Shown here piece by piece: positions 13,132 to 33,873 of a DNA stretch of 64,000 bases. The translations under genes and the position numbers were made by a program. Positions within the stretch are counted from its first letter, which is position 1. Every line of letters begins with the position of its first letter. Origin of the DNA: Spirochaetia bacterium (GTDB lineage Bacteria; Spirochaetota; Spirochaetia; SZUA-6; Bin103); assembly GCA_965243555.1 (NCBI GenBank), contig OZ251575.1:864463-928462 (forward strand). The letters run 5' to 3'. A model generated the notes under the pieces. It was not told where the DNA came from. It searched no databases and saw only the letters and a program-made list of their open reading frames with translations.

Positions 13132-13132
13132 C

Positions 13133-15289: not shown

Positions 15290-15443
15290 CCGGAGGGCCG
15301 ACGCCCCCTTACCATCGTCGCAGCTTGCGGCTGGCGCAAGCGCAACAGGCGCTGTCGTTAGGCCGGTCGCGCCGCCCGCCGGGATTGAGCCCCCGGCGCG
15401 CGGCATCCAAAAAATTTGGGCGCGTATACTCGCGGATGCTCTC

Positions 15444-15460
15444 CTTACTGTGAAGACACC
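15444..15460 (+). repeat. 17-bp perfect direct repeat CTTACTGTGAAGACACC, copy 1, upstream of the recombinase gene.
   Basis: Exact match to 16896..16912, read directly from the sequence. A 17-mer coincidence is negligible at 64 kb. Confidence 0.8.
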
Positions 15461-15800
15461 CCTACCCCCCCTCCCCCCGGTCGAACCCCCCCGGCACCCG
15501 TAGACGGGCGCACGCTCACCTACTCCACGCGTCCGCGGGCAAGTTGCACACGGATTGCCCGCGCGGCCCGCCGCGCGCCGAGTGAACGAACAGCGGTGGC
15601 TATTCAGCTCCTGCCGGTGCGCGCTGGGGGGGCGCCCTCCGGGGCGACAGCTCGTAGCCGGACCGCACCCCCCGCGCACGGGCGGCCCGGCCCGGCGCGC
15701 TCCCATCCGCACGCCCCTGCATGGTGGCCCGGGCGCGCCGTCATAGCGCCGCGCCGGGTCGCTGCCGGGCGCAAAACCACCCGTTTCGCTTGACCTGTGT

Positions 15801-15830
15801 TATCGCCTATGATTACACTTATAGGCGATG
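15801..15830. promoter_or_regulatory. Inverted repeat TATCGCCTAT-N10-ATAGGCGATg overlapping the recombinase start codon and putative promoter (TTGACC at 15790).
   Basis: The arms match 9/10 bp. A -35-like TTGACC lies 5 bp upstream. Candidate operator or recombinase-binding site. Confidence 0.45.
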
Positions 15831-19102: not shown

Positions 19103-19208
19103 AGAGACGCGATCCGTTTACGATAATGTACCAAAGTGATGATTATCGTCAACCAGAGCGTGCGTGCCGCTCCTGTCCGCGCCTGCACGTCCCGGCGGCG
19201 GCTTGCGG

Positions 19209-20756
19209 TCAGCCGGCGGCCACCTCGAAGGCGGTCACGTTGCGAGTCGCGCGGCTGAACTCCACCCCGAGCAGGTGGATCGGCTCGCGCCCGTCCCGGT
19301 ACTTGGCGGCGTAGTCGCGCTCCCGCAACTGCGCCAGCGCGGTCCCCTCCCCCGCCTGCTCCGTTACCTTGAACTCGAACAGGTACACCTGCCCGCCGGC
19401 CCGCACCGCCATGTCCAGCCGCCCGACCGCGCTCGAATCCTCCACCACAATGTCATAGCCCAGCGCCGCGAAGTAGGAGTAGAACACGCTCGCGTAGTAG
19501 CCCTCGTAGCGGGCGATGTCGTTGTTGGAGTGCCACTCATACGGGATGCTCGCAAAGAAGGCGTGGAACAGCTCCCGCAGCCCGGCGCAGTCGGCCGCTT
19601 CCAGCAGGCGCGCCAGGCGGAAGCTGTTGGCCATCTGCCGGTCTCCGTCCCGCACCAGATGGCGCAACAGCACGTCGTTCAGGCTCTGCCGCACCTCCCG
19701 GTTCGGGTAGCCCAGCCGGTACACTGCCCTCCCGCCCAGCTCATCTTCCGCCTTGATCGTCAGGTAGCCGGTCTGGAACAGCAGCGCCTGGGTGCCTATG
19801 TGCTCCACGTCGAACGCCGACAGCAGCTCCTCGGTACCGACCATGTCGGCCAGCGACACGGTGGAGACTCGCCGCTCAAACAGCGTGTCGATCAGGAACG
19901 CCGGCGAGCCGGTCTCGAACCAGTGGGGCTTGAACTTGCGGCTGTCGAACAGCAGCAGCAGGTCAAACGGGTTGTACACCTTCTCGTCGCCCAGCCAGCA
20001 GTACCCGTTGTACCACTCGCGGATGCGATCGCGGTCCAGCCCCGGCAGCTCCGGGGCGAATACGGTGTCCAGGTCTTCTTCGGTGTAGCCGCAGATCGCC
20101 GAGTAGCGCGGGTCCAGCGTGAGGTCGGTGAGGTTGTTGAGGTCGGAGAACAGACTCATCTTGGAGAACTTGCTCACCCCGGTCAGGAAGGTAAAGCGCA
20201 CGTGCGCTTCACTGTCCTTGATCACCCCGTACAGACCGCGCAGGAAGGCGCGGTTGGCGCGGGCTACCTCGGGGGTTTCCAGCGCGTCCAGGATCGGCTT
20301 GTCGTACTCGTCCACCAGCACCGCCGCCTGCTGCCCGGTACGCTCGTGCAGGGCTTCCAGCAGGGATGCGAAACGGCCCGGCGCCGTCAGGTAGTCCGCC
20401 TCCACCCCGTTGCGCCGCTCCACGGCCGCGAGCTGCTCCATGACGTTGTCCCGCAACAGTCCCGGCTCCCTGAAACTGCCGCCGCCGAAGCTGAGCCGCA
20501 CCACGGGATGGCGCTGCGACCAGTCATGGCGTCCGTGGACGTGGAGCCCCTCGAACAATGCCTTGCTGCCCTCGAACAGCTCCTTGAGCGTGTCCAGAAA
20601 CAGACTCTTGCCGAACCGCCGCGGCCGCGACAGAAAGTAGTGCGTGCCCCCGTCGAGCAGACGTTCGACGTAGGGCGTCTTGTCCACGTAGTAACAATTC
20701 CGCTTGCGGAGCGTGCGGAAGGTCTGGATGCCGGTGGGCAGCCTGCGCCGGACCAT
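19209..20756 (-). CDS. Paralog A1: AAA-ATPase-like N-terminal domain plus C-terminal PD-(D/E)XK nuclease-like domain (~515 aa).
   Basis: N-terminus MVRRRLPTGIQTFRTLRKRNCYYVDKT..YFLSRPRRFGKS (the predicted-ATPase family signature). The C-terminus has D...FEFK (PD-(D/E)XK). I trimmed the track ORF to the Met homologous to the A2/A3 start. Confidence 0.7.
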   Translation of the reverse strand: MVRRRLPTGIQTFRTLRKRNCYYVDKTPYVERLLDGGTHYFLSRPRRFGKSLFLDTLKELFEGSKALFEGLHVHGRHDWSQRHPVVRLSFGGGSFREPGLLRDNVMEQLAAVERRNGVEADYLTAPGRFASLLEALHERTGQQAAVLVDEYDKPILDALETPEVARANRAFLRGLYGVIKDSEAHVRFTFLTGVSKFSKMSLFSDLNNLTDLTLDPRYSAICGYTEEDLDTVFAPELPGLDRDRIREWYNGYCWLGDEKVYNPFDLLLLFDSRKFKPHWFETGSPAFLIDTLFERRVSTVSLADMVGTEELLSAFDVEHIGTQALLFQTGYLTIKAEDELGGRAVYRLGYPNREVRQSLNDVLLRHLVRDGDRQMANSFRLARLLEAADCAGLRELFHAFFASIPYEWHSNNDIARYEGYYASVFYSYFAALGYDIVVEDSSAVGRLDMAVRAGGQVYLFEFKVTEQAGEGTALAQLRERDYAAKYRDGREPIHLLGVEFSRATRNVTAFEVAAG

Positions 20757-20769: not shown

Positions 20770-22662
20770 TCACACCCACGCCAGCAGCTCAAAGACGGTG
20801 TTGGCAAGCAACGTTTCGCCGTTGCCCACCAGGTAGACGATGTCCTTATCCGTATTAACCGTAGTGCCCGACCATTCCCGTTGTAACACTATCTTGACCC
20901 TGCGAACGGTGGCATCGTTCGTGGCCGACACCAGGTAGACGTTTGCGCCCAACCCGGTAACCCTTTGGTTCCACAGGACAGACGCCGCGAATCCCGTCCA
21001 CGGCAGAACCACTTCGGAGACTACCGCCGCACCGATCTTGACGCGAAACACGAGACCCAACCACGAATTCGGCAGCCGCCGCGGAACGTTCATCTCGCTT
21101 ACCCCACGCGCCGGTGACACCAGGTCGAATCCTGCGGGCGCCGTCCCCTCGATGACCCAGTTGACCGGCGGAAGCGTAGACGCGGAGTACAAGCCGGCGG
21201 CGGGCGACAGCGTCGCTATCAGCGCGCCGACGTGATTCGGCGTCCACGCCGCCGGCGTCTCGGTGCCGTCCGCAGCGACTTTGACCCACGAAAGCGTGCC
21301 GGCGGTCTCGTCCAGGCTCTTGACGTGCTGCTCGCGCGCCTCCGCCTGCAGCCGCGCCTTGCTCATGGTGCGGTAGCCGTACAACGACGCCTCAGGGTAT
21401 GCCGTAACCGCCTTCGACGCCGTAAACGCGGCCACGTAAAACCCGACGTCGCCCAAGTACAGAATCCCAGCAGCAGGGTCGTATGCCGCCCCCGTCAACC
21501 CGCGAAAGCCGGACCGGCCTGCCGTTACCTGCGAACCGGTGAGGGTAAGCCCCGGAACTTCTTTACCGGTGGCTACGTTGTAGGCGTACACCGCGTCTCC
21601 GCTGCCCCCGTAGATCAGCACGTCCCCTACGAACGTCGCAGCGCCGACCCCCTCCGTTCCCGGCAGCTTCACGTGCTTGGTAGCCGTGCCGCTCTTGAAC
21701 ACGCGCGCAAGACCGAACCCGTCAATCACCCACAGATCGTTGTCGTGCCATGCCATACACCACACGCTTCCCAACCTGCCAACGGCCAACTTGGAAACTT
21801 TGATCTCGTCCCCGGCCACCTCCTCGGGCCTTTGCTCAGCCGTTCCGGGGTGCGACAACCTGAACACCTTGATCGGCTTACGGTACCCGTCCGCCGTAAT
21901 CGCGAGCTTTTTGCTGGTGTGGTTGTAGGACAGTCCATGGACCGGAGCAACACCAGTCCCGGTGATGTCCGCGCCGGGAAACCTGCGACCGTTCTTGAAC
22001 GCGAAGACTCTGCCCGAACGAGTACTGCCAACGAGGACCACGCCATTCTCAACGACTTCCAAGGCGCCTGGCTTGATCCTGCCCAACTCAGTCGCATCAA
22101 TGTCCTTGCTGCTATCTCGGTTCCACCCCGTTACCGCGCCATGCGTGAGCCGAAAATTGATCCTCACGTATGCCGGGGCCTCAGTGCTCAGCACAGCAGG
22201 ATCGCCGCCAAGCGCCTCCGCGGTGACGATCGCCAGGGTATCGGTGGTCCCCGTGTCCTTGATCACCTTCTCAATGCTCTTCCTATCCGTCACCGCCGCC
22301 TCCGCAGTGGCGCCCATCTGCAAGATAAGCGCATCGACCGTGCCGGCGGCGAACAGGTTGGCCAGCGTCCGAGAGGCGTCATGCGGCAAAGTCGTCACCT
22401 TGAACTTGCCGGCGTCCCGGTTGCCGCTCGTACCCACGCGCACGTAGGAAAACTGCGCAGTCACCGCCCCGTCCGCGCTAATCGGGAACGTGCCCTGATA
22501 GGTCCGCGTCCGGGCGTTGTGCTCCAGCCGCACTACGTGAGGATCGGACTTCTGAATCGCCTCCAGACGCCACTCTTTGACCGGATCAAGCGCCCGTTGC
22601 GCGAACTTGTCGGCTGCGGCCAATTCACGGCCGGCTTGCGGCCGGGGATTGGTAACCGCCAC
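20770..22662 (-). CDS. Paralog B1: large protein (630 aa) with a beta-propeller-repeat body related to the phage tail protein, plus the conserved B-family C-terminal domain.
   Basis: GTG start per the track. The body shares repeats and the motif LSWVKVAADGTETPAAWTP with the 3931..7593 tail protein (NVLSWQDKAADGTTTPRQWTP). The C-terminal ~110 aa are homologous to B2 and B3. The 5' end sits out of frame behind a leader module. Confidence 0.55.
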   Translation of the reverse strand: MAVTNPRPQAGRELAAADKFAQRALDPVKEWRLEAIQKSDPHVVRLEHNARTRTYQGTFPISADGAVTAQFSYVRVGTSGNRDAGKFKVTTLPHDASRTLANLFAAGTVDALILQMGATAEAAVTDRKSIEKVIKDTGTTDTLAIVTAEALGGDPAVLSTEAPAYVRINFRLTHGAVTGWNRDSSKDIDATELGRIKPGALEVVENGVVLVGSTRSGRVFAFKNGRRFPGADITGTGVAPVHGLSYNHTSKKLAITADGYRKPIKVFRLSHPGTAEQRPEEVAGDEIKVSKLAVGRLGSVWCMAWHDNDLWVIDGFGLARVFKSGTATKHVKLPGTEGVGAATFVGDVLIYGGSGDAVYAYNVATGKEVPGLTLTGSQVTAGRSGFRGLTGAAYDPAAGILYLGDVGFYVAAFTASKAVTAYPEASLYGYRTMSKARLQAEAREQHVKSLDETAGTLSWVKVAADGTETPAAWTPNHVGALIATLSPAAGLYSASTLPPVNWVIEGTAPAGFDLVSPARGVSEMNVPRRLPNSWLGLVFRVKIGAAVVSEVVLPWTGFAASVLWNQRVTGLGANVYLVSATNDATVRRVKIVLQREWSGTTVNTDKDIVYLVGNGETLLANTVFELLAWV

Positions 22663-22820
22663 ACCTTCGGCTCGCCCGTAATCGCTACCGCCTGCGTCTC
22701 CTTCCCGCTCGAAATGATGACGTTCGTAGCCGCAAGCAGTGCCTCATTATGCCGCAGTGCAGCCTCGAACTCGGAGGGCTGTGGGTTCGATTGCCGTCTC
22801 GGCCCCGTAGGTCGCAGCAT
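22533..22820 (-). pseudogene. Leader-module ORF (MLRPTGPRRQSNPQPSEFEAALRHNE...) that runs out of frame into the B1 body.
   Basis: AGGAGG-N8-ATG leader near-identical to the B2 5' end. The reading frame is offset by 1 nt from the B1 frame. This may be a recombination junction, a frameshifted gene, or a site of programmed frameshifting. Confidence 0.35.
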
Positions 22821-22824
22821 CAGC
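22778..22824. repeat. Conserved leader-module core (type I) upstream of B1.
   Basis: About 47 bp (CGATTGCCGTCTCGGCCCCGTAGGTCGCAGCATCAGCTCCACCTCCT) near-identical to 24606..24652. It contains the RBS and start of the leader peptide. Confidence 0.7.
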
Positions 22825-23107
22825 TCCACCTCCTTGCATCTTTGCATCTTTGCGCAGCCGCGCCGTAGCGTGCCAGTTCAGACCCATTCGTATACCTCAA
22901 TGGTTGCTTGGGCCGGAATCTCATTGCCATTACCACGCACGTCAAGCTTGTGTCCGCGCGGTCCGGGTCGGCATCCGGTACCTTCGGCGTGCCCGGAATC
23001 GCTACCGCTACCGACTCCTTCCCGCTCGGAATGGTGACGTTCGCCGCCGCCGTAAGCAGTTGCTCGTCGTACCGTAGCGCCTGCTCGAACTCAGCCCGCC
23101 CTACCAC
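22820..23107 (-). pseudogene. Truncated B3-type 5' gene fragment (VGRAEFEQALRYDEQLL...DPDR, then divergent).
   Basis: It matches the B3 N-terminal ~50 aa and diverges after DPDR. It is preceded by a type II leader carrying ACG in place of the ATG. Confidence 0.4.
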
Positions 23108-23177
23108 TTGGCACTCGCCTCAATCTGCCCCCGCACCGGCGGCTGCGCTATCGGCCGCCGGTGGCGGGGCCGGGGGT

Positions 23178-23224
23178 TGATGGCCGTTTCGGCCCGTAGG
23201 GTCGCAACGTCAGGTCCACCTCCT
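23178..23224. repeat. Conserved leader-module core (type II, with start codon mutated to ACG) upstream of the truncated B fragment.
   Basis: Near-identical to 29628..29677. Confidence 0.7.
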
Positions 23225-24638
23225 ATACCCATGCGCGCAATTCGAAAGTGGTATTGGTCTTGATAGGCGTGTTGTTGCCAATTACAAATAGCGCATCCTT
23301 GCGTGGACGGATGTACTCTCGCTGCAGCGCCAACTTGATGTTGCGCCTCGTCCTGTCATCGGTCGCATTGATGATGTAAACTGATGTACCCAAATGGTCT
23401 TCGACTTCGCTTTGCCAGGCTGATCCTGTCCGGAAAGGCAACCACGGGACGTACACCCTCTCTATTACCTTCACCCCGACCTTCACCACGACGACCAACC
23501 CCAACCAGGATTCCGGAAGCACCCTGGGAACGTTCATCGAACCGAAGACATGCGGCGGGCCGACCCGGTCGAAGCCCGTCGGAATGCCGCTTGAAAACAC
23601 CCAGTCGGCTCCGGGGCGCGCGCTAGCCCCTGGCGTTCCCGCCGGCCACTCTAGTGTTGCTACCAAGGCCCCCACGTGAGTCCTCGGGGCCGCGTCCGTG
23701 GGTGAAAGGGATACGCCAAGGTCCGCGGTGATGCGGAACGTGCGAGACTCCGCTGCTCCCTGGTAGGTCCAGTAGTAGCCGGTGGTGTTGTTGGCGTTGC
23801 GGCCAAGGTAGAAGTGAACTTCGCCGAGCTTGACGTTCGACCGGTACACGCCTACGCCGCCGCCGATCTCCAGCCCCTCCACGGGGTCGCCAACTTCCCA
23901 ACTCGCCACCGCCGCAAGCTCCGAGAGAAAGACAATCTCGGTGATGTCGTGCGTCCTATTATTGTCGGTGGTGAAGCCAATATCGTCGGTCCTGCCGCCG
24001 CCGGTGATCGTCAGGGTCAGCGACACGTACAGCTCTCCGCGGTTGTAGTCGTCCAGGTCCAATGGCGTGCTGAACGGAATCAGCGCGGCACCACTAACTT
24101 GGTTGTCGGAGCTGTCATTCACGTCAAGGGCAGCGATGGTGGCGCGATCTTCCAGCACGGTGAGGCGCGGAACAGGGGGCAGCTTTACCGCCGCGATCTT
24201 CGACGCGTTCGAACGGCGCGCCCACGGTTCAAGGTCAATCGAAGACACCGTGATCGCTACCGAGTAGGTGCCCGCCCGATCCGCGGAGAACAGGAACTGC
24301 GAATCGGTCGACCGCGCCAGCATGCAGAGCGTGCTGCCCATCGAATGCACGACGGCGTTCTTTGAATTCAGCTCCGCGCCGCGCGTAACTACCGGCTTCG
24401 CCAGCAAGGCCGACAGGTCGAACCGCACGGCGCTGACGCCCACCTTCCATATCACCTCACGGTCCGGGTCGGCATCCGGCACCTTCGGACTGTCCGTGAT
24501 CAATGCCGCCTGCGTCTCCGACCCGTTTTGAATGGTCACGCTCTTCGCCGCAGGCCATGGCTCGTTATGCCGTAGCGCCGCCTCGAACTTGGAGGGCTGT
24601 GAGTTCGATTGCCGTCTCGGCCCCGTAGGTCGCAACAT
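23223..24638 (-). CDS. Paralog B2 (~471 aa): fused leader, B-type body, and conserved C-terminal domain.
   Basis: AGGAGG lies 8 nt before the ATG at 24638. The N-terminus is MLRPTGPRRQSNSQPSKFEAALRHNE. The body is homologous to B3. The C-terminus is homologous to B1 and B3 (NVPRVLPESWLGLVV...FELRAWV). Confidence 0.55.
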   Translation of the reverse strand: MLRPTGPRRQSNSQPSKFEAALRHNEPWPAAKSVTIQNGSETQAALITDSPKVPDADPDREVIWKVGVSAVRFDLSALLAKPVVTRGAELNSKNAVVHSMGSTLCMLARSTDSQFLFSADRAGTYSVAITVSSIDLEPWARRSNASKIAAVKLPPVPRLTVLEDRATIAALDVNDSSDNQVSGAALIPFSTPLDLDDYNRGELYVSLTLTITGGGRTDDIGFTTDNNRTHDITEIVFLSELAAVASWEVGDPVEGLEIGGGVGVYRSNVKLGEVHFYLGRNANNTTGYYWTYQGAAESRTFRITADLGVSLSPTDAAPRTHVGALVATLEWPAGTPGASARPGADWVFSSGIPTGFDRVGPPHVFGSMNVPRVLPESWLGLVVVVKVGVKVIERVYVPWLPFRTGSAWQSEVEDHLGTSVYIINATDDRTRRNIKLALQREYIRPRKDALFVIGNNTPIKTNTTFELRAWV

Positions 24639-24652
24639 CAGGTCCACCTCCT
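24606..24652. repeat. Conserved leader-module core (type I) at the B2 5' end.
   Basis: Matches 22778..22824. Confidence 0.7.
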
Positions 24653-24717
24653 TACATCTCTCTGTGCCGATAGTAGCTCACCTCGCCGTCCACCGCCACC
24701 GTGCCACCCACCGCAAT

Positions 24718-26583
24718 CTAGTCGTTGTCCAGGATGGTGACGGTCGCCGTGCACCGCCCCCCGCAGGTTACGTTGGTACTGTGAGGCCGATCATCAGTTG
24801 GGGTCAGGCCGATTTCCTCCAGATCGCGCGTGCTGAGCGGGCCGATGTGCAGCTGGAACGTCTCCGTCTCTTCTTTGACGAGATCGCCGACTATGCGAAA
24901 CTGAATTTCTTGTGAACACCGAGGGTCATCGTCGCCCGGCGCACGACTGCAAGGGGGGTTCCCGGTGAAGTAGCCCCAAACAAAGTCGATGATTCCGCTA
25001 CGTAAATTAATAGGAAAAAGAATCGTGTAGTCGGTGCCAGAGCAGCTTCCCGAAGGGGTGTGCTGCGTCCGGGGTGAGGTGCACGGGGTTGCCGTGCCCG
25101 GCGTAGCCCAGTATTTGAAATACAAGTGCTCGGGGATTGAGGTCACATTAAGGTATATCTTGACCTGTACCCATCCGTTCTCGTAGCCTTCGGTTAAAGT
25201 ATCGTCGCGTTCCGTAAAGGTATAGGTCAGGTCGGCGAACGAGATCGTCGGCGGCGTCTCCTCGGCCGGTGGAGGGACTGGGGCCGGCGGCTCCGCGGTT
25301 GGCGGCGCCGGCTGCTCGGCCGGTGGCGGCGCTGGGGCGGTGGTGAACGACCACACCTTGCCAAAGCCCTCTAACCCGCTTTCGTTCAAGGCATCCACCA
25401 TCCAATAGTAGCGCGTTTCGGGCGCCAGCTCCGCCGACGTGGGGATCCTCAAGAAGGTAGACGTGGTTCGAGTCGACCTGTTCCGCCAAAGGAGCTCACT
25501 TGTGGTGCTCCAGTACACATTGTAGTGGGTAGCGCGGGGCGCGGCGGCCCAACTCAAAAGCGGCCCGGCAACCGTCACGCCGGTCGCCCCGTCGCGCGGC
25601 TGCGGGTTGCTGGCATATCCGGGAGCGCGTATGGTGGTGAACGACCACACGTTGCCGCGGATGGTGCCGGCTTCGGTCTTTACGTCCACCCGCCAGTAAT
25701 AGCGCGTTTCCCACAGCCGAGGCGCCCAGGCGCCAACCTCATAGGAGTTGTTCACGGTATTGAGCGGCCATTCCGTACCCTCAAGGCCGTCCGCGGGGAG
25801 ATCGTTCGTGGTGCCCATGTAGAAGTCGTAGCTGAGAGCGCCGGGCGCGGCGTCCCAACTGAAAGTTACTGCGCCGCGGCTCACGCCGGTCGCCCCGTTG
25901 CGGGGCGACGGGTTCCTGGCAGCTCCGGGAGGGCCGGTTGCGGGCGGCGGAGCACCGTCGCCCGGCGGCGGACTCGGAGCCGGCGGCGTCTCATCGCCCG
26001 GGGCCGGACCTGGGGCGGGCGGCGTTTCATCGTCGCGCGGCGACGGACCCACGGTCGGCGGCGCGGGCCGGCCGGCGGGGATGGTCGGCGCCACGTCGTC
26101 CGGCAGGGTTTCCAGGTCGAAGTCATCCGGCAGGTCGATCACTCGCGCTATGCACTCGTCGTTGGTGTTGACCACGCAGCTCGAGCCGTCGGCGCGGCGG
26201 CTGAGGACGTACAACCGATTACCGCCGGGGTAACGGATCACGATCAGATAGTACTGCGACTGCTGCGCCTGCTCGGTCCGGCCGTCCGGCACCGACAAGC
26301 CGGCCTGCAGCGACTGATTCGCGGGGTCCATGCAGGTGGCCGGCGCGGTGGCGCCGCCCATGTGCAGCTTGTCGGAGACGATCGCGCCGTGGACTCCCGC
26401 GCCGCGGTCGAGCAGCCGAATTGCCGAGTCGTCGCACGAGGCCTGCGGCGCGGCCGGCGCCGGGTTCGCCGCAGTCTCCGGCTCCGGGTCCGGGGTGACC
26501 GCCGCCCCGCAGGCGGCCAGGATTGCGGTCAGCGCGAACAGCGCCGCCCACCGTGTCCACAAGCGTTTCGTTGTCTTTATCAT
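24718..26583 (-). CDS. Paralog L1: secreted lipoprotein (~621 aa) with a Pro-rich linker, FN3-like repeats, and a C-terminal Calx-beta-like domain.
   Basis: Signal peptide plus lipobox (LTAILAAC). YYWRVD...VWSFTT FN3-like motifs occur twice. The C-terminal TVTILDND resembles a Calx-beta end. The first ~230 aa are near-identical to L2. I trimmed the start to MIKTTKRLW. Confidence 0.6.
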   Translation of the reverse strand: MIKTTKRLWTRWAALFALTAILAACGAAVTPDPEPETAANPAPAAPQASCDDSAIRLLDRGAGVHGAIVSDKLHMGGATAPATCMDPANQSLQAGLSVPDGRTEQAQQSQYYLIVIRYPGGNRLYVLSRRADGSSCVVNTNDECIARVIDLPDDFDLETLPDDVAPTIPAGRPAPPTVGPSPRDDETPPAPGPAPGDETPPAPSPPPGDGAPPPATGPPGAARNPSPRNGATGVSRGAVTFSWDAAPGALSYDFYMGTTNDLPADGLEGTEWPLNTVNNSYEVGAWAPRLWETRYYWRVDVKTEAGTIRGNVWSFTTIRAPGYASNPQPRDGATGVTVAGPLLSWAAAPRATHYNVYWSTTSELLWRNRSTRTTSTFLRIPTSAELAPETRYYWMVDALNESGLEGFGKVWSFTTAPAPPPAEQPAPPTAEPPAPVPPPAEETPPTISFADLTYTFTERDDTLTEGYENGWVQVKIYLNVTSIPEHLYFKYWATPGTATPCTSPRTQHTPSGSCSGTDYTILFPINLRSGIIDFVWGYFTGNPPCSRAPGDDDPRCSQEIQFRIVGDLVKEETETFQLHIGPLSTRDLEEIGLTPTDDRPHSTNVTCGGRCTATVTILDND

Positions 26584-26663
26584 CGTCAGTCTCCTCTCGG
26601 AACGGTCGCCAGTGCCCTGGGTATAACCCAGCGAGCGAGCGAATCTCCTGCGCGGCTCTGGTC

Positions 26664-28076
26664 CTAGTCGTCGTCTATGATCGTGAGTTTCGCCCGGCAC
26701 CGGCCGCAGGTCACCGGGAAACCTTTATGAGGGATGACTTCTATGAATACCGTCTCATTTTCTTCCTTTACCCGATCGCCGATAATGACTGGCCCATGAC
26801 TAAACGGCCCGCAGACTCGGTGTGGCGAACCTTCAGGAATATTGCGGCACGGCTCCATCTCATAGTGCGCGGAGAAATCAACCCAGTCGACTCCTTCCGC
26901 CACCCTCATTTGAAGATCGAAGTGCCCGTCGGTCGCCGTGCCCCCGCCCATCTTAAAGAAAATATGGAGGTCCCGGGCCGCCGTGACGGGCGAACTCAAG
27001 GTCACCTCGAAGTCGACATCAAAATACCCGTCGTCGCCTTCGAGAACGCTCTGATCGGCAGAAAGCGATATCGTCGGCTGCGCTGGCGTCTCCTCGGCCG
27101 GTGGAGGGGCTGGAACTGGGGCCGGCGGTGGCGCCGCGGCAGGAGCGGTGGTGAACGACCACACGGCGCCGCGGGTGGTCCCGGCTTCGTTCTTTGCGTC
27201 CACCCGCCAGTAGTAGACCGTTTCGGCATCCAGATCCGCCGAGGCTGAGATCCTCAAGGCCGTGAACGAGGTGTTGATCGGCGTATCCAGGTCGGTGTTC
27301 TCGGCGCCCCAGTACACGTCGTAGCTGAGCGCGCGCGGCGCGGCGGCCCAACTCAAGAGCGGACCGCCAACCGTCACGCCGGTCGCCGCGTCACTCGGCT
27401 GCGGACTGGTGGCAGCTCCGGGAGGCGTGCCGGCTGTGGGCGGCGGCGCACCGTCGCCCGGCGGCGGACTCGGAGCCGGCGGCGTCTCATCACCCGGGGC
27501 CGGACCTGGGGCGGGCGGCGTTTCATCGTCGCCCGGCGACGGACCCACGGTCGGCGGCGCGGGCCGGCCGGCGGGGATGGTCGGCGCTATGTCCTCCGGC
27601 AGGGTTTCGAGGTTGAAGTCATCCGGCAGGTCGGTCACTCGCGCTATGCACTCGTCGTTGGTGTCGACCACGCAGCTCGTGCCGTCGGCGCGGCGGCTGA
27701 GGACGTACAGCCGATTACCGCCGGGGTAGCGGATCACGATCAGATAGTACTGCGACTGCTGCGCCTGCTCGGTCCGGCCGTCCGGCACCGACAAGCCGGC
27801 CAGCAGCGACTGATTCGCGGGGTCCATGCAGGTGGCCGGCGCGGTGGCGCCGCCCATGTGCAGCTTGTCGGAGACGATCGCGCCGTGGACTCCCGCGCCG
27901 CGTTCGAGCACGCTGATCGCCAGGTCGTCGCACGAGGCCTGCCGCGCGGGCGGCTCCAGGTTCGCCGGCGGCTCCAGGTCCGGGGTGACCGCCGCCCCGC
28001 AGGCGGCCAGGATTGCAGTCAGCGCAAGCAACGCCGCCCACCGTGTCCACAACCACAATGCTTTCGTTGTCTTCAT
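26664..28076 (-). CDS. Paralog L2: secreted lipoprotein (470 aa) with an FN3-like repeat and a C-terminal Calx-beta-like domain.
   Basis: Start MKTTKALWLWTRWAALLALTAILAAC (lipobox). C-terminal motif KLTIIDDD. The N-terminal half is near-identical to L1. The C-terminal region is lower in GC. Confidence 0.6.
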   Translation of the reverse strand: MKTTKALWLWTRWAALLALTAILAACGAAVTPDLEPPANLEPPARQASCDDLAISVLERGAGVHGAIVSDKLHMGGATAPATCMDPANQSLLAGLSVPDGRTEQAQQSQYYLIVIRYPGGNRLYVLSRRADGTSCVVDTNDECIARVTDLPDDFNLETLPEDIAPTIPAGRPAPPTVGPSPGDDETPPAPGPAPGDETPPAPSPPPGDGAPPPTAGTPPGAATSPQPSDAATGVTVGGPLLSWAAAPRALSYDVYWGAENTDLDTPINTSFTALRISASADLDAETVYYWRVDAKNEAGTTRGAVWSFTTAPAAAPPPAPVPAPPPAEETPAQPTISLSADQSVLEGDDGYFDVDFEVTLSSPVTAARDLHIFFKMGGGTATDGHFDLQMRVAEGVDWVDFSAHYEMEPCRNIPEGSPHRVCGPFSHGPVIIGDRVKEENETVFIEVIPHKGFPVTCGRCRAKLTIIDDD

Positions 28077-28107
28077 CGTCAGTCTCCTCTCCGCACTAAC
28101 GGGGTTG

Positions 28108-29556
28108 TCATATCCACTGGAGCAGCTCGATGGAGGTGCCGGCCTTGATCTGCTCGGCGTTGCCCACGACCTCGAGGCGGTCCTTCGTCGTACTGGCCCA
28201 CTCGCGTTGCAGCACCAGCTTCACGGTGCGTGCCGTGGAGTCGTCACTTACGAGCAAATGGAATACGTTCGTGCCGAAGGGGGAGGGTCCTATCCGACTG
28301 TCCCAGGCAACGTCTTCGTGGATGGGGACCCAGGGAAGGAATACCTGCGACACCGTATTGGTGGTGCCCACCTTCGTCCGCACTACCACGCCCGCCATGT
28401 TATCCGGCAGCACCCTCGGAACGTTCAACTGCCCGTTGCTGCCTCCGGTCGCTTCGAAATCACGGGGAGCCCCGCTTTGCACCACCCAGGCCGCAGCCGG
28501 GCGCGCATTCGCCGCTAGCGTGCCGGCAGGAATGTCAAGCTTGGCAATCAACGGTCCGACGTGTCCGGTAGACGAAGTAGCCGCGGGCGCGTCAGTCCGC
28601 GAGAACGACACCTCCATCGTGGCGGTCAGTGTCACATCCGACCCGCTCGTCCCGCCACCGGAGTAGCGCAGCAGGTAACCGAGCTCGTTGTTGGCGTTCT
28701 TGGCAAAGTAGAACGACAGCAGACCCAGTTGGTTGAAGCTATCGTGCAGGTACACGCTGGAACCGACCGGCTCCCCGTGAAAGGGCCCACTGCTCACGTA
28801 CGTACCCAGTGCAGATACATCCGATGCCAACACTACTCCGTCGAACGTGTAGGTACGGTCCTCGTTCGTGCCGAAACCGGCCACTAGCACCGAACGATCG
28901 TCGAAGGTAACCGTCATCACCACGTGCAACTCGCCGGTCCGGTGTTCGTCCAGATCGAATGCCGGCGCCAGCGCCCTGAACGAGCCGGTTGACATGCTGT
29001 TGGTGTTATGGATGCGCATCCCGACAGCCCTCCCGGCGTGCAGAATCTGCAGCCCGGTCAGCTTCCGCACGCGCGCGTCGACCTGTGCCTGCGTCAGCCA
29101 CGGCGACGGCAGATTCGCCGCCGCGACCTTCGTCGCGTTCGACCGGCGCGCCCACGGTTCAAGGTCAATCGAGGACACCGCGAGCTCCACCGAGTAGGTG
29201 TCCGCCCGGTCCGCGGAGAACAGGAACTGCGAAGCGGCCGTCTCCGACGCGGCCGTCCGCGCCAGCATGCAGAGCGTGCTGCCCACCGAGAACACGACGG
29301 AGTTGGTTGAATCCAAGACCGTGGTCGTCGTAACTGTCACCGCCGGCTTCGCCCGCAACGCGGACAGGTCGAACCGCACGGTGCTGCCGTCCACCGTCCA
29401 TATCACCTCACGGTCCGGGTCGGCAGCCGGCACCTCCGGCGTGCCCGGAATCGCTACCACTACCGATTCCTTCCCGCTCGCAATGGTAACGGCCGTAGCC
29501 GGGAGCAGTTGCTCGTCGTACCGTAGCGCCCCCTCGAACTCGGCACGCGCTACCAT
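28108..29556 (-). CDS. Paralog B3 (482 aa): B2-like body and conserved C-terminal domain, preceded by a leader uORF.
   Basis: Its ATG lies within AAATGGTAG and overlaps the uORF stop. The N-terminus MVARAEFEGALRYDEQLL is homologous to the B2 segment SKFEAALRHNE. The body (STLCMLAR..SSIDLEPWARRSNA) is homologous to B2. The conserved C-terminus ends ..ELLQWI. Confidence 0.55.
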   Translation of the reverse strand: MVARAEFEGALRYDEQLLPATAVTIASGKESVVVAIPGTPEVPAADPDREVIWTVDGSTVRFDLSALRAKPAVTVTTTTVLDSTNSVVFSVGSTLCMLARTAASETAASQFLFSADRADTYSVELAVSSIDLEPWARRSNATKVAAANLPSPWLTQAQVDARVRKLTGLQILHAGRAVGMRIHNTNSMSTGSFRALAPAFDLDEHRTGELHVVMTVTFDDRSVLVAGFGTNEDRTYTFDGVVLASDVSALGTYVSSGPFHGEPVGSSVYLHDSFNQLGLLSFYFAKNANNELGYLLRYSGGGTSGSDVTLTATMEVSFSRTDAPAATSSTGHVGPLIAKLDIPAGTLAANARPAAAWVVQSGAPRDFEATGGSNGQLNVPRVLPDNMAGVVVRTKVGTTNTVSQVFLPWVPIHEDVAWDSRIGPSPFGTNVFHLLVSDDSTARTVKLVLQREWASTTKDRLEVVGNAEQIKAGTSIELLQWI

Positions 29557-29663
29557 TTGGCACCCGCCTCAATCCGCTCCCGCACCGGCGGCGGCGCTAT
29601 CAGCCGGCCGCGGCGGGGGCTGGGGCCCGATGGCCGTTTCGGCCCCGTAGTAGGTCGCAACAT
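29550..29663 (-). CDS. Leader uORF (37 codons, MLRPTTGPKRPSGPSPRRGRLIAPPPVRERIEAGAKW) upstream of B3, translationally coupled to it.
   Basis: AGGAGG lies 8 nt before the ATG. Its stop TAG overlaps the B3 start (ATGGTAG). It is the same leader as B2, with a ~75-nt insertion. Confidence 0.35.
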   Translation of the reverse strand: MLRPTTGPKRPSGPSPRRGRLIAPPPVRERIEAGAKW

Positions 29664-29677
29664 CAGGTCCGCCTCCT
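29628..29677. repeat. Conserved leader-module core (type II) at the 5' end of the B3 uORF.
   Basis: Matches 23178..23224. Confidence 0.7.
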
Positions 29678-29767
29678 GCATCCGTGCCCGGTCGTCGGAC
29701 AGTGCGAGCTCCAGGATTGGGTGTATCCATGCGCGTGTCAACCCGGCAAGCCCGGCCGGCCGGCGGG

Positions 29768-31315
29768 TCAGGCGTCGTCGGCCTCGAAGGCGGTCAGGGT
29801 GCGCGTCTTGCGGCTGAACTCCACGCCGATCAGGTGGATGGACTTACCGCGGCCCAGGTACTTGGCGGCGTAGCCGCGCTCCCGCAGCTGCGCCAGCGCT
29901 GCCCCCTCCCCCGCCTGTTCCACCACCTTGAACTCGAACAGGTAGACGTGGCCGCCGGTCCGCACCGCCATGTCCAGCCGCCCAACCGCGCTCGACTCCT
30001 CCACCACAATGTCATAGCCCAACGCCGCGAAGTAGGAGTAGAACACGCTGGCGTAGTAGCCCTCGTAGCGCGCGATGTCGTTGTTGACGTGCCACTCATA
30101 CGGGATGCTCGCAAAGAACGCTTGGAAAAGCTCCCGCAGACCGGCGCAGTCGGCCGCTTTCAGCAGGCGCGCCAGGCGGATTCTGTCCGCCGTCTGCGCC
30201 CGGGCGCCCGGCGCCAGGCGGCGCAACAGCACGCGGTTCAGGCTCTGCCGTACTTCCCGGTTCGGATAGCCCAGCCGGTACACCTGCTCCCCGTCCAGGT
30301 CCTCCTCGTCCGTGATCGTCAGATAGCCGGTCTGGAACAGCAGCGCCTCGGTGCCTATCTCCTCCACGTCGAACGCCGACAGCAGCTCACGAGTGCCGAC
30401 CATGTCCTCCAGCGAAACGGTGGAGACCTGCCGCTCGAACAGCGTGTCGACCAGGAACTTCGGCGAGCCGGTCTCGAACCAGTAGGCATCGAACTCGCGG
30501 CTGTCGAACAGCAGCAGCAGGTCAAACGGGTTGTACACCTTCTCATCGCCGCGCCAGCAATAGCCGTTGTACCACTCGCGGATGCGCTCGCGGTCCAGCC
30601 CGGCCAGCTCCGGGGCGAACACCGTGTCCAAGTCTTCCTCGGTGTAGCCACAGATCGCGGAGTAGCGCTGGTCCAGCGTGATGTCGGTGAGGTTATTGAG
30701 CTGCGAGAACAGGTTCACCTTGGAGAACTTGCTTACGCCGGTCAGCAACGCAAACCGTATGCGCGCGTCGCTCGCCTTGATCACCCCGTACACGTTGCGC
30801 AGAATGTCGCGGTTGGCGCTCGCCACGGCCGGCGTGCCCAGCATGTCCAGGATCGGCTTGTCGTATTCGTCCACCAGCACAACCACCCGCCGCCCGCTCC
30901 GTTGGTGCAGCACTTCCAGCAGGTGCGCGAAGCGGCCCGGCACCGTAAGAGCGTCCGTCTCCACCCCGTGGCGCCGTTCCTCGGCCGCGAGCAGGTCCAC
31001 GAGGCTGTCCTCCAACAGGTTCGGCTGCCGGTAGTCGCCGCCGGCAAAGTCCAGCCGCACCACCGGATTGGGCTCGCCCCAGGTCCAACCGGCATGGACG
31101 CGGAGCCCCTCGAACAGCTTCTCGCTGCCTTCGAACAGCTCCTTCATGGTGTCGACGAGTAAGCTCTTCCCGAACCGCCGCGGCCGCGACAGGAAGTAGC
31201 GCGTCCCTTCGGCGACCAGACGTTCGATGAAGGCGGTCTTGTCGACGTAGTAGCAGTTCTCCTCCCGCAGCACGCGGAAACTCTGGATGCCGATCGGCAA
31301 CCGGCGCTTGACCAT
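29768..31315 (-). CDS. Paralog A2: AAA-ATPase-like plus PD-(D/E)XK protein (515 aa).
   Basis: MVKRRLPIGIQSF...YFLSRPRRFGKS. The C-terminal 150 aa are almost identical to A3. Confidence 0.7.
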   Translation of the reverse strand: MVKRRLPIGIQSFRVLREENCYYVDKTAFIERLVAEGTRYFLSRPRRFGKSLLVDTMKELFEGSEKLFEGLRVHAGWTWGEPNPVVRLDFAGGDYRQPNLLEDSLVDLLAAEERRHGVETDALTVPGRFAHLLEVLHQRSGRRVVVLVDEYDKPILDMLGTPAVASANRDILRNVYGVIKASDARIRFALLTGVSKFSKVNLFSQLNNLTDITLDQRYSAICGYTEEDLDTVFAPELAGLDRERIREWYNGYCWRGDEKVYNPFDLLLLFDSREFDAYWFETGSPKFLVDTLFERQVSTVSLEDMVGTRELLSAFDVEEIGTEALLFQTGYLTITDEEDLDGEQVYRLGYPNREVRQSLNRVLLRRLAPGARAQTADRIRLARLLKAADCAGLRELFQAFFASIPYEWHVNNDIARYEGYYASVFYSYFAALGYDIVVEESSAVGRLDMAVRTGGHVYLFEFKVVEQAGEGAALAQLRERGYAAKYLGRGKSIHLIGVEFSRKTRTLTAFEADDA

Positions 31316-31339
31316 CAGCCCATCACACCATCGAACAGG

Positions 31340-32884
31340 TCAGGCGTCCGCCGCCTCGAAGGCGGTCAGGGTGCGCGTCTCGCGGCTGAACTCCACGCCA
31401 ATCAGGTGGATGGACTTACCGCGGCCCCGGTACTTGGCGGCGTAGCCGCGCTCCCGCAGCTGCGCCAGCGCCGCCCCCTCCCCCGCCTGCTCCACCACCT
31501 TGAACTCAAACAGGTAGACGTGGCCGCCGGTGCGCACCGCCATGTCCAGCCGCCCAACCGCGCTCGACTCCTCCACCACAATGTCATAGCCCAGCGCCGC
31601 GAAGTAGGAATAGAACACGCTGGCGTAGTACCCCTCATAACGGGCTATGTCGTTGTTGGTATGCCACTCATACGGGATGCTCGCAAAGAACGCTTGGAAA
31701 AGCTCCTGCAGGCCGGCGCAGTCGGCCGCTTCGAGCAGGCGCTCCAGGTGCGTGCTGTTGGCCATCTGCCGCGCATCGTCCCGCACCAGATGGAGCAGCA
31801 GATGCTCATTCAGGCTCTGCCGCACCTCCCGGTTCGGATAGCCCAGCCGGTACACCGTTCTCCGGCCGCGCTTCACTTCCGTGATCGTCAGGTAGCCGGT
31901 CTGGAACAGCAGCGCCTCGGTGCTTACGTGATCCACGTCGAACGCCGACAGCAGGCGCTCGGTGCCCACCATCTGCTCCAACGATACGGAGGAGACCCGC
32001 CGCTTGAACAGCGTCTCCACCAGAAACGCCGGCGAGCCGGTCTCGAACCAGTGGGCGTCGAACGTGCGGCGGCGCAGCAGCAGTAGCACGTCGAACGGGT
32101 TGTAGACCTTCTCCTGGCCCAGCCAGCTATAGCCGTTGTACCAGGCGCGCACCTCCTCCCGGTCCAGTCCTCCGAGCTCCGGCGCGAACACGGTGTCCAA
32201 GTCGCCTTCCGTGTAGCCGCAGATCGACGAGTAGGCCGGCTCCAGCGTGATGTCGATAAGGTTATTGAGCTGCGAGAACAGGCTCATCTTGGAGAACTTG
32301 CTCACCCCGGTCAGAAACGTGAACCGTACGTGCGCGTCGGAGTCCTTGATCACGCCGTACACGCCGCGCAGGAAGCCGCGGTTGGCGCGGGCCACCGGCG
32401 GCGTCTCCAGCGCATCCAGGATCGGTTTGTCGTATTCGTCCACCAGCACCACGACCCGCCGGCCGGTCCGTTCATGCAGGGCTTCCAGCAGGTGCGCGAA
32501 GCGGCCCGGAACCGTGCGGGAGTGCGCATCCACCCCGTGGCGCCGTTCCATCGCCTCGATCTGCTCCAGGACGTTGTCCGCCACCAAGTACGGCTCGGTG
32601 AAGCTGCCGCCGGCGAAACTCAGCCGCACCACCGGATTGGGCTCGCCCCAGGTCCAGCCGGGGTGGATGCGGAGCCCCTTGAACAGCTTCTCGTTGCCCT
32701 CGAACAGCTCCTTCAGCGTATCCAGGAACAGGCTCTTGCCGAACCGCCGCGGCCGCGACAGGAAGTAGTGCGTACCTTCGTCGACCAAGCGTTCAATGAA
32801 GGCCGTCTTGTCGACGTAGTAGCAGTTCCGCTCCCGGATCCTGCGGAAGCTCTGGATGCCGATCGGCAACCGGCGCTTGACCAT
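31340..32884 (-). CDS. Paralog A3: AAA-ATPase-like plus PD-(D/E)XK protein (514 aa).
   Basis: Same family as A2. The first ~40 nt of the CDS and the ~25 nt upstream are identical to A2. Confidence 0.7.
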   Translation of the reverse strand: MVKRRLPIGIQSFRRIRERNCYYVDKTAFIERLVDEGTHYFLSRPRRFGKSLFLDTLKELFEGNEKLFKGLRIHPGWTWGEPNPVVRLSFAGGSFTEPYLVADNVLEQIEAMERRHGVDAHSRTVPGRFAHLLEALHERTGRRVVVLVDEYDKPILDALETPPVARANRGFLRGVYGVIKDSDAHVRFTFLTGVSKFSKMSLFSQLNNLIDITLEPAYSSICGYTEGDLDTVFAPELGGLDREEVRAWYNGYSWLGQEKVYNPFDVLLLLRRRTFDAHWFETGSPAFLVETLFKRRVSSVSLEQMVGTERLLSAFDVDHVSTEALLFQTGYLTITEVKRGRRTVYRLGYPNREVRQSLNEHLLLHLVRDDARQMANSTHLERLLEAADCAGLQELFQAFFASIPYEWHTNNDIARYEGYYASVFYSYFAALGYDIVVEESSAVGRLDMAVRTGGHVYLFEFKVVEQAGEGAALAQLRERGYAAKYRGRGKSIHLIGVEFSRETRTLTAFEAADA

Positions 32885-32921
32885 CAGCCCATCATACCAC
32901 GGAGGGCCGGCCAGTAGTCCA

Positions 32922-33191
32922 TTATTCGTTGAGGCGCGTCAGGGCCCAGATCAGCGCGAGCGCGCCGAATCCGGCGGCGAACAGGTTGACGCCGTTGAAG
33001 TGCGCCAGCCGTTCGATCACCCCGGCGAGCAACTGATCCGCCACGCCGCCGAGCACGGCGCCGATCAGGCCGACGACGAGCGCGCCCCAGAAGTCGCCGA
33101 GGACGCGCCGCCGCAGGATGAAGCGCCAGAAGATGGCGGCCGCCAGCCCGACGGTTACGTAGGTCAGGCCAACGTCGACGTACCGGAACAC
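32922..33191 (-). CDS. GlsB/YeaQ/YmgE-family stress-response membrane protein (89 aa).
   Basis: Two hydrophobic segments with the G..G...G spacing typical of the transglycosylase-associated YeaQ/YmgE family. Confidence 0.65.
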   Translation of the reverse strand: MFRYVDVGLTYVTVGLAAAIFWRFILRRRVLGDFWGALVVGLIGAVLGGVADQLLAGVIERLAHFNGVNLFAAGFGALALIWALTRLNE

Positions 33192-33201
33192 GCGGGATCG
33201 G

Positions 33202-33873
33202 CTACGGGAGCGTCAGGAAGATCGAGCCAAGGTAGAGCGGTTCGCTATACCGTTCCCGGCCGTCGCCGCCGCGGCCGTAGGAAAGCACGTAGAGTTGCAA
33301 GTAGAACGGCTCCCCGGCGCAGTCGTTCGCGAGTTGCGGCAGCGCCGCCACGTCGGCGTCACCGGCCTGAAACTGATCGCAGGTGAACCGCTCGTACCTG
33401 CCGTCGGTTTGCTCCACGCCGCGCCGTAGCGAGACGGCGCGCTCGCCGCCCGTGGCCACCGGGTCGCCGCCGCCGCTAACCGGAGAAAAGTCCAGGGTGA
33501 TCGTCCCGTGACGTCCGGTGTTCGGTACTTTGATCAGCGGCCGGTCGGCCTGGTCGACCGGGTGCCGCCTGTCCTCGTCGGCCAGCCGCACGAAGCGCCG
33601 GCGCACGGCGGCGAGGCTGCCGAGGTTGCGGTCGGTAAAGGCGCCGGGCGCCGAGAAGCGGTAGTACACCTCGTAGCCGAAGCTCACCACGTCCCCGCCG
33701 ATGGGGCCGGCGGGCTGCGAGAAGGTGAACCGGTGGAGGATGGTACTGGCCGACGGAGCGGTCGGCCGCGGCAGCGGCGCCTGGGGGTTGGCGGGCAGGC
33801 CGCAGCCGCCGACGGCGCCGGTCAGGGCCGCCGCGAGCAGCACGCCGCCGAACCGCCTCCGGAAGTGCCCCAA
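33202..33873 (-). CDS. Putative lipoprotein (~223 aa).
   Basis: A TTG start gives MGHFRRRFGGVLLAAALTGAVGGC (signal peptide and lipobox). The upstream part of the track ORF 33202..34617 is Arg-rich shadow and is discarded. Confidence 0.45.
   Translation of the reverse strand: MGHFRRRFGGVLLAAALTGAVGGCGLPANPQAPLPRPTAPSASTILHRFTFSQPAGPIGGDVVSFGYEVYYRFSAPGAFTDRNLGSLAAVRRRFVRLADEDRRHPVDQADRPLIKVPNTGRHGTITLDFSPVSGGGDPVATGGERAVSLRRGVEQTDGRYERFTCDQFQAGDADVAALPQLANDCAGEPFYLQLYVLSYGRGGDGRERYSEPLYLGSIFLTLP

Follow-up and report, generated by a model that had tools for sequence, protein, structure and literature searches.

Why should related genes of one bacterial genome be nearly identical at their ends and strongly different in between, and what would such genes be used for? 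The question is raised by three paralogs, here called A1, A2 and A3, in a 64,000-nucleotide (nt) stretch of a Spirochaetia genome (GenBank assembly GCA_965243555.1, contig OZ251575.1, forward-strand positions 864,463 to 928,462), which we refer to as the window. An earlier reading made from the letters alone, with no database searches (hereafter, the sequence-only reading), had placed and oriented the three genes correctly, with A2 and A3 in tandem (their spacer is 24 nt; Table 1), and had called them AAA-ATPase-like proteins with a PD-(D/E)XK nuclease domain. A domain-family search bore out this call in all three: PF09820 (AAA-ATPase_like) covers residues 7–203 (E ~1e-60, 200–211 bits against a gathering cut-off of 26.1) and PF08011 (PDDEXK_9) residues ~417–507 (E ~1e-21, 74–79 bits against a cut-off of 25.5), the values for A3 being E=1.4e-62 and E=3.9e-22. 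In all three proteins the Walker A (RPRRFGKS), the Walker B (DEYD) and the PD-(D/E)XK motifs I–IV (E, D, ExK and Q; E418, D448, E461-x-K463 and Q476) are intact; when 77 and 113 homologues are aligned, the nuclease and Walker columns either do not vary or reach at least 90% conservation. These motifs, including the atypical Walker A, fit the description of the DUF1703 family (Knizewski et al. 2007, PMC1913061). We conclude with high confidence that A1–A3 are members of this family and that the copies are mosaic through recombination, and we favor, as a probable overall explanation, a set of recombining DUF1703 paralogs with a shared nuclease and exchangeable putative recognition cassettes.

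In a sliding alignment, A2 and A3 are 57–90% identical through the middle and 92–98% identical from about nt 1170 of the coding sequence onward; identity is not uniform along the genes, and the middles differ as much as the sequence-only reading had said. At the 3′ end, 12 of 285 nt differ (95.8% identity), with seven amino acid differences in the last 136 codons, which makes the near-identical block real and its claimed length of ~150 codons slightly generous. In A2 this block contains the core of the nuclease (D448, E461 and K463, at 29927–29974). A1 shares the C-terminal nuclease block with A2 and A3, as had been proposed, at 83–97% nucleotide identity. When flanks are included in the alignment, A1–A3 are similar from ~16 nt upstream of the ATG as far as the stop codon.

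Full-length family genes, 101 in all, were taken from the window and 78 related loci, and for each segment of A1–A3 we recorded the closest sequence among them. For A2 the closest sequence changes repeatedly: the tandem copies of locus L003 over nt 1–225 (89–93%), a copy in another Spirochaetia genome (L001_10001, OZ251573.1) over nt 151–675 (89–95%), copies of L002 and L003 over nt 601–1200 (87–95%), A1 over nt 1126–1350 (91–95%) and A3 over nt 1276–1545 (96%). The middle of A2 is only 77–85% identical to its tandem neighbor A3, compared with 90–95% to the copy in the other genome. Maximum-chi-square breakpoint tests on four triplets, with 1000 permutations and hence a floor of p=0.001, gave p=0.001 for all sites and p=0.001–0.003 for third codon positions only. 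Between nt 217 and 1156, A2 shares 132 informative sites with L001_10001 and 32 with A3, and outside these limits 52 with A3 and 17 with L001_10001. Because the neighbor switches are accompanied by significant breakpoints, including at third positions, recombination among the paralogs is well supported; the breakpoints fall in conserved framework sequence.

The same comparisons bear on plain duplication with uneven selection, by which the ends would have stayed alike through constraint with no exchange at all. Constraint does contribute. In 40-codon windows, codons 381–440 of the A2–A3 pair combine a low proportion of nonsynonymous differences (pN 0.02–0.05) with a proportion of synonymous differences (pS) of 0.30–0.33 and are under purifying selection for that reason; pN is 0.00–0.01 in the last 95 codons, and purifying selection explains part of the A2–A3 C-terminal identity. 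The first 35 nt of the coding sequence encode RRLPIGIQ(S/T)F, a motif common to the whole family, and sequence entropy in 112 diverse representatives is lowest in the framework regions. Constraint does not account for the breakpoints at third positions or for an A2 middle that resembles another genome’s copy more than A3; moreover, random inter-genome pairs are not more alike at their ends (0.76 and 0.73) than in their core (0.76–0.77), and, as described below, region types are shuffled among copies. Plain duplication is largely refuted by the neighbor switches and breakpoint tests, and we consider it very unlikely.

The age of the exchanges is a separate matter. The sequence-only reading had inferred ongoing gene conversion that homogenizes the ends; segmental exchange among paralogs is upheld (breakpoint p≤0.001), but continuing homogenization is not. 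The longest identical run between A2 and A3 is 61 nt, and pS over codons 421–515 is 0.10–0.13, against 0.2–0.49 elsewhere. In the tandem copies of L003 the C-terminal module is of the same type (91–92% identity), and the affinity of the A2 and A3 3′ ends to each other, measured against these copies, amounts to 19 versus 7–8 sites (p ~0.03–0.05; not significant at third positions). This excess is only marginal, a point against the favored explanation as far as the three window genes are concerned; the module that they share could predate the split of the two genomes. Given the short runs, the synonymous differences and the marginal excess, the A2–A3 exchange was not recent, and the exchanges in the window are old, not ongoing. 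Replacement of the middles is an equally good reading of the A2–A3 pattern.

Elsewhere, the replaced parts have narrow limits. Neighboring copies at other loci are often 97–100% identical save in nt 300–450, nt 900–1200 or both, where identity is 57–81%. In ten successive 150-nt bins, the pair at locus L009 has identities of 0.98, 0.88, 0.64, 1.00, 0.96, 0.98, 0.98, 1.00, 0.99 and 0.98, and the copies at L024, L039, L078 and L002 show the same block pattern. Fine mapping defines two cassettes, HV1 at codons ~98–140 and HV2 at codons ~300–320, 331–350 and 361–390 with conserved islands between; entropy in the 112 diverse representatives is maximal at these two regions. When region types were set at 90% nucleotide identity, they proved to be shuffled among 21 Spirochaetia copies: A2 combines an HV1 of the L001_10001 type and an HV2 of the L003 type with the C-terminal module of A3, A3 joins HV1 and HV2 types of its own to the module of A2, and the paralogs P0057 and P0081 of the source genome are identical in HV2 and different in HV1. 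The swaps at HV1 include all substitution classes (e.g., G>C 14, C>G 10, A>G 13 and G>A 9) and have sharp borders, and on these two grounds we attribute them to cassette replacement, not adenine-directed mutagenesis. A diversity-generating retroelement is ruled out, as the changes are not confined to adenines. In closely related cassettes, the ratio of nonsynonymous to synonymous rates (dN/dS) is 0.29 and 0.17, compared with 0.13–0.16 in the framework; the cassettes are still under purifying selection and are therefore functional modules, not junk.

To place the cassettes in a fold, we used an AlphaFold2 model of A2 that was built on 113 sequences (37–88% identity; collected with a Calditerrivibrio plasmid copy as the search seed) and reached a predicted local distance difference test score (pLDDT) of 86.4 and a predicted template modeling score of 0.85. 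An earlier model on 77 close homologues was discarded (pLDDT 53.5, no Foldseek match at E≤0.001). A search of the PDB by sequence gave no match. By Foldseek, the best PDB match of the retained model is 2qby_A, an Orc1/Cdc6 protein on origin DNA (E=1.6e-4, probability 0.99, 405 columns), followed by Apaf-1, and the model has an AAA+ core, a lid and a winged-helix fold of the Orc1/Cdc6 type. The template modeling scores (TM-scores) are low (0.23–0.29), from which we infer that the domains are oriented differently than in Orc1/Cdc6. The C-terminal domain matches the PD-(D/E)XK nuclease CinB with a Foldseek probability of 1.00, and the nuclease resembles resolvase and splicing-endonuclease folds. 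Fold recognition of the DUF1703 ATPase region to Cdc6 (1fnn) had already been reported (PMC1913061). In the model, HV1 forms two helices (residues 98–116 and 125–140) between strand β2 (85–89) and the Walker B strand (144–149) and would thus sit at the position of the initiator-specific motif of Orc1/Cdc6-type AAA+ proteins, and HV2 forms a winged-helix-like unit, comprising a β-hairpin “wing” (333–349) and the helices that follow it. Orc1/Cdc6 proteins contact DNA, in their complexes with it, through two elements: a helical insert at that position in the ATPase, and the winged helix including the wing. We tentatively regard HV1 and HV2 as putative DNA-recognition elements, a model-based assignment for which the case is nearly, though not quite, in balance.

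The predicted likeness to archaeal Orc1/Cdc6 (2qby, 1fnn) extends to the AAA+ core, the two helices between β2 and Walker B, the lid and the winged helix. Unlike those proteins, DUF1703 members have the atypical Walker A RPRRFGKS and do not conserve the residues of sensors 1 and 2 (PMC1913061); they also carry a fused PD-(D/E)XK nuclease, occur in many copies per genome and have no link to replication origins. Copy number and nuclease fusion argue against a role in origin recognition or replication. They could instead be chromosome-maintenance or repair factors acting on the cell’s own DNA, with copy number reflecting dosage or subfunctionalization, and the Orc1/Cdc6 fold match, a nuclease akin to resolvases and splicing endonucleases, the position of some copies among housekeeping genes and one homologue named “Holliday junction resolvase-like predicted endonuclease” would all suit that role. 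It agrees poorly with a patchy distribution and variable copy number (most species have fewer than four copies, and 9.8% have at least ten; PMC6387759), with plasmid-carried copies, and with hypervariable, shuffled cassettes, which are atypical of housekeeping repair proteins, and we give it only a slim chance.

The three paralogs of the sequence-only reading are real, but they belong to a larger set of at least 12 copies in the source genome, made up of 11 protein clusters on the same contig (including P0001 and P0035) and A1. The sister genome has at least seven. Our collection comprises 115 copies in 79 loci, the window included; tandem pairs or arrays recur in loci of Spirochaetia, Vicinamibacteria, Latescibacterota and Terriglobia, a Calditerrivibrio plasmid has five copies and the chromosome at least eight more, and large expansions are also found in Deferribacter and Hydrogenimonas. 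Clustered at 50% identity, the family comprises 2,960 clusters if E≤1e-30 is required and 19,024 at E≤1e-3. Identities of 62–70% are kept across Spirochaetia, Latescibacterota, Binatia, Vicinamibacterales, Pseudomonadales and Thermodesulfobacteriota and, separately, across Deferribacterota, Campylobacterota, Peptococcaceae and Aquificota, a conservation across phyla that is unusually high for a patchy, multi-copy accessory gene. The guanine-plus-cytosine (GC) content of the copies follows the host (0.51–0.54 in genomes of ~0.50, 0.65–0.69 in genomes of ~0.70), indicating that the copies have long been resident; recent horizontal transfer is ruled out on the same ground. Members are carried by 68 of 72,556 plasmid records. 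Among 50,697 phage records, 33 match, all of them uncultured gut contigs at no more than 40% identity, and IMG/VR contributed 140 stretches; given the scarcity and low identity of the phage records, a phage-borne origin is unlikely. Degraded copies were also observed. Near the triple tandem array of L003, a fourth copy at 17782–19327 of that locus is split by a frameshift (residues 1–170 and 171–515 by tblastn) and is probably a pseudogene, and truncated copies occur in L044, L062, L063 and L079.

This distribution invites the idea of a selfish, self-propagating gene, in which a unit of ~30 nt of leader plus the open reading frame (ORF) would spread by means of its own nuclease, in a homing-like or copy-out manner. 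Copies resemble each other from ~15–30 nt ahead of the ATG as far as the stop codon, which is what such a unit would leave; the copy numbers (at least 12 here, at least 13 in Calditerrivibrio over chromosome and plasmid), the plasmid members and the close homologues in six phylum-level groups at 64–70% identity are compatible with it, and the Tribolium selfish element Medea contains a DUF1703 homologue (PMC6387759). Yet no terminal inverted repeats flank the units, no transposase or integrase recurs as a neighbor in the 79 loci, and copy GC tracks the host genome; A1 and the adjacent AbiE genes are syntenic in two genomes, a Deferribacteraceae locus is identical across samples (L161–L165), and dN/dS is 0.13–0.29 throughout. 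We judge a selfish gene distinctly unlikely. A transposable element or insertion sequence was rejected for lack of flanking inverted repeats and of a recurrent transposase.

We propose that the paralogs, of which the source genome has at least 12, each combine an Orc1/Cdc6-like AAA+ ATPase and winged-helix region with a fused C-terminal PD-(D/E)XK nuclease, and that they may be a set of ATP-dependent nucleases that share a single cutting module and differ in their nucleic-acid recognition surfaces. The mosaics were built by recombination between paralogs, both tandem and dispersed, whether through gene conversion or through unequal crossing-over, and exchange of cassettes would reshuffle the recognition surfaces. 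All these copies make up the proposed repertoire. The likeliest use of such a repertoire would be telling foreign DNA apart, that is, defense or exclusion.

The neighborhoods of homologues, by which the sequence-only reading had thought a defense or exclusion function could be recognized, point both ways: some loci are rich in defense genes, but others are purely housekeeping. The commonest neighbors are AAA_14-DUF4143 proteins (the PADLOC candidate PDC-S01; 11 of 79 loci, 6 of 145 nearest neighbors) and ankyrin-repeat proteins (11 of 79), with Cas3 and a DUF1156 methylase at five loci each. A subset of loci has PARIS-like, MADS, BREX, DISARM or Hma components within 10 kb. Defense models match nearest neighbors as well as genes 6 kb or more away, the latter with Hma, BrxH, DISARM, type III methylase and Cas among them. 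Each family gene stands alone as a unit, and no partner gene is conserved beside it. Several results weigh against a defensive repertoire with DNA-reading cassettes. None of the families in PADLOC-DB v2.0.0 matches A1–A3 at E≤0.01, nor does any in NCBIfam; no neighbor family is common to more than 11 of the 79 loci; and the distal control genes are equally defense-rich, the defense counts being raw numbers with no genome-wide baseline. The Deferribacteraceae copy (L161–L165) lies among isoprenoid, radical-SAM and two-component genes, identically in five samples. Positive selection was not seen in the cassettes (dN/dS 0.29 and 0.17, both below 1), and DNA contact by HV1 and HV2 is read from where they lie in the predicted secondary structure and from a Foldseek match of the whole chain at a TM-score of 0.23–0.29. 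A role of the family in defense or exclusion is thus a candidate that we find possible but somewhat doubtful. In its strongest form, DUF1703 would be a widespread, so far overlooked single-gene immune or exclusion system in which the ATPase reads DNA by means of two independently exchangeable cassettes and passes it on to a constant nuclease, tandem and dispersed arrays of copies serving as a recombining library of specificities; we think this unlikely.

Ankyrin-repeat proteins among the commonest neighbors, together with the many homologue-bearing metagenome-assembled genomes of lineages that we take to be inhabitants of sponge microbiomes, recall another role, that of effector nucleases which a symbiont secretes or directs at its host and which diversify through interaction with that eukaryotic host. 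It has been proposed for Cardinium hertigii cCpun, where signal peptides are predicted for 10 of the 25 paralogs (PMC6387759). A1–A3, however, begin with a motif of the ATPase domain (the Pfam match starts at residue 7), and a signal peptide would have no space before it; expansions just as large are seen in the free-living thermophiles Calditerrivibrio, Deferribacter and Hydrogenimonas, and the predicted ATP-dependent, Orc1/Cdc6-like module for DNA binding suggests that the target is DNA inside the cell. An effector role is scarcely credible here.

Multi-copy, recombining DUF1703 genes were already described in 2019, and the window is a further example. In C. hertigii cCpun, where the family has 25 paralogs, and in a midge Rickettsia, an expansion of DUF1703 was reported by Siozios et al. 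(2019, PMC6387759), who detected intragenic recombination in the cCpun paralogs with RDP4 and the PHI test, inferred horizontal transfer and noted that multi-copy genomes are scattered across bacteria. The present genes are like these in their PF09820 and PF08011 domains, in the many paralogs per genome and in intragenic recombination. They differ in that the paralogs are 68–90% alike in amino acid sequence, against a mean of 39% in that study, and in that the copies are partly tandem with 24–27-nt spacers, have no signal peptides and occur in a high-GC Spirochaetia genome. Two discrete cassettes and a start-proximal box are not part of the cCpun description (PMC6387759). What our analysis adds is the recurrence of tandem arrays in many phyla, the two sharp-bordered cassettes with their structural placement, and the start-proximal box, in a large family that is annotated only as “ATP-binding protein”.

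Other known systems offer partial likenesses. AAA_14-DUF4143 (PDC-S01) and Arch_ATPase (PF01637), the latter being the family first linked to the DUF1703 ATPase region (PMC1913061), are likewise single-gene ATPases that are multi-copy in many genomes. Both belong to other Pfam families than A1–A3, which match none of the PDC-S01 models, and the anti-phage role of PDC-S01 is itself only a candidate one. The specificity subunit HsdS of Type I restriction enzymes has a conserved framework and two target-recognition domains, which are swapped between paralogs by way of conserved flanks and so brought into new combinations. The resemblance to DUF1703 would be one of analogy only; the two have no kinship in sequence or fold, and DUF1703 has no methyltransferase partner. 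According to a review (PMC10952713), PF09820 is one of the domains that RdrA, PARIS and Old-tin proteins contain. Unlike RADAR, A1–A3 match no PADLOC RdrA model, have no adjacent RdrB adenosine deaminase and carry the ATPase fused to a nuclease; their neighbors are the AbiE pair, a small membrane protein and ORFs with no assignment. If the cassettes do act as proposed, the family would join the defense or exclusion nucleases as another library of specificities kept by gene conversion, and if the single-gene immune system were real it would be a protein-only counterpart of the shuffling of Type I target-recognition domains. If the cassette interpretation is false, DUF1703 is an ordinary recombining multigene family.

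The identical 5′ stretch of A2 and A3 has a different character from the 3′ block. The sequence-only reading had put it at ~40 nt of coding sequence and ~25 nt upstream; it is real, but shorter, with 35 coding and 10 upstream nt, or 16 upstream nt if one A/G mismatch is allowed. The upstream part reads GGT(A/G)TGATGGGCTG. To judge from the sequences, this identity is largely that of the conserved N-terminal motif and of a box upstream of it. Of 18 related Spirochaetia copies, 15 have a TGGTAnGAT-like box (TAnnnT) 4–8 nt ahead of the start, whether they are tandem or solitary, and similar boxes are found in some other phyla. Within the window the box is kept in A3 and degenerate in A2 (TGTGAT) and A1 (TAAGAG), and the tandem copies of L003 have an equivalent 27-nt spacer with TGGTATGAT. 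The A3 box suggests a putative promoter for a leaderless mRNA transcribed from the A of the ATG. Against a promoter stands a sigma-70 two-hexamer scan of 29400–33400, which returned neither a promoter nor a terminator, and the box could alternatively be a three-codon mini-ORF (ATG ATG GGC TGA), with its stop overlapping the start codon, that acts as a translational coupling signal. Separately, the first ~32 coding bases of A3 and A2 (32847–32878 and 31278–31309) form an imperfect palindrome centered on CCGATCGG that is 83% self-complementary over overlapping 18-nt arms; it may be a by-product of GC-rich codons for the LPIGI motif or a protein-binding site.

Table 1. Features of the DUF1703 genes and of their surroundings in the window (positions count from the first letter of the window).
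Feature	Position	Strand	Remark
A3, DUF1703-family gene, 514 amino acids	31340..32884	minus	Upstream tandem member; protein P0035
A2, DUF1703-family gene, 515 amino acids	29768..31315	minus	Downstream tandem member; protein P0001
A1, DUF1703 paralog, 515 amino acids	19209..20756	minus	Length counted from the ATG at 20756; 10.5 kb from A2
3′ block of A2, coding nt 1261–1548	29768..30055	minus	95.8% identical to A3 31340–31627
Walker A of A2, RPRRFGKS, codons 44–51	31163..31186	minus	Invariant alignment columns
Walker B of A2, DEYD, codons 149–152	30860–30871	minus	Invariant alignment columns
HV1 cassette of A2, codons ~98–140	30896..31024	minus	L001_10001 type (at least 90% nucleotide identity), flanks not
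HV2 region of A2, codons ~300–390	30146..30418	minus	L003 type (at least 90% nucleotide identity)
A3–A2 spacer, 24 nt, CCTGTTCGATGGTGTGATGGGCTG	31316..31339	minus	Degenerate copy of the box, TGTGAT
Upstream box of A3, TGGTATGATGGGCTG	32885..32900	minus	Ends 6 nt before the ATG; extended -10-like TGnTATGAT
AbiEi-like ORF	18461–19102	minus	Directly downstream of A1; no significant Pfam match
AbiEii nucleotidyltransferase	17661–18629 (ORF)	minus	PF08843, E=2.1e-23; true start probably near 18464
Tyrosine integrase	15828–16817		Prophage-like module (3931–16817)
Terminase-like ORF	13535–15289		Prophage-like module
P22/SU10-type portal	11284–13131		Prophage-like module
SU10-type adaptor	3931–7776		Prophage-like module

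The toxin-antitoxin pair and the phage-like module that had been placed beside these genes do exist in the window (Table 1). The AbiEi-like ORF and AbiEii constitute a type IV toxin-antitoxin pair. In the sister genome, A1 has L002_10001 as its ortholog, and the two regions are 88.6% identical over a 3.1-kb stretch that takes in the AbiE pair; the A1–AbiE trio is kept in L002, and the pair is also present in L053. Similarity to the sister genome stops at 17661, on the side of the integrase. The prophage-like module additionally has a zinc-ribbon ORF, and inside ORF 9976–10896 of the same region ~10 head-to-tail copies of the 18-nt unit CGGCGCCCGCGCCACCAC (10677–10910) encode a six-residue, Gly/Ala-rich protein repeat. 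No tRNA genes were found in the window, and an Rfam search of it gave no match. On the 5′ side of A3 lie genes for a small membrane protein, a lipoprotein, a tetratricopeptide-repeat protein, rpsA and cmk.

Between A1 and A2, an 8.8-kb block on the minus strand (20770–29556) has a lower GC content (62–65%) and is absent from the sister genome. Its ORFs gave no convincing Pfam or PHROG match and are not kept beside family members elsewhere. ORFs 28108–29556, 23223–24647 and 20770–22662, with a 95-amino-acid fragment at 22820–23107, share N- and C-terminal modules at 75–89% nucleotide identity, and two lipoprotein-like ORFs (26664–28076 and 24718–26700) have Pro-rich linkers, repeated YYW(R/M)VD(A/V) modules and 300-nt blocks in common at 95%. 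The block is a second set of mosaic paralogs. Farther away, at 48432–51739, two plus-strand ORFs called by a heuristic based on third-position GC have a first-position GC of 0.91–0.95 and a third-position GC of only ~0.70–0.72, which suggests that the real genes there are in another frame or on the other strand.

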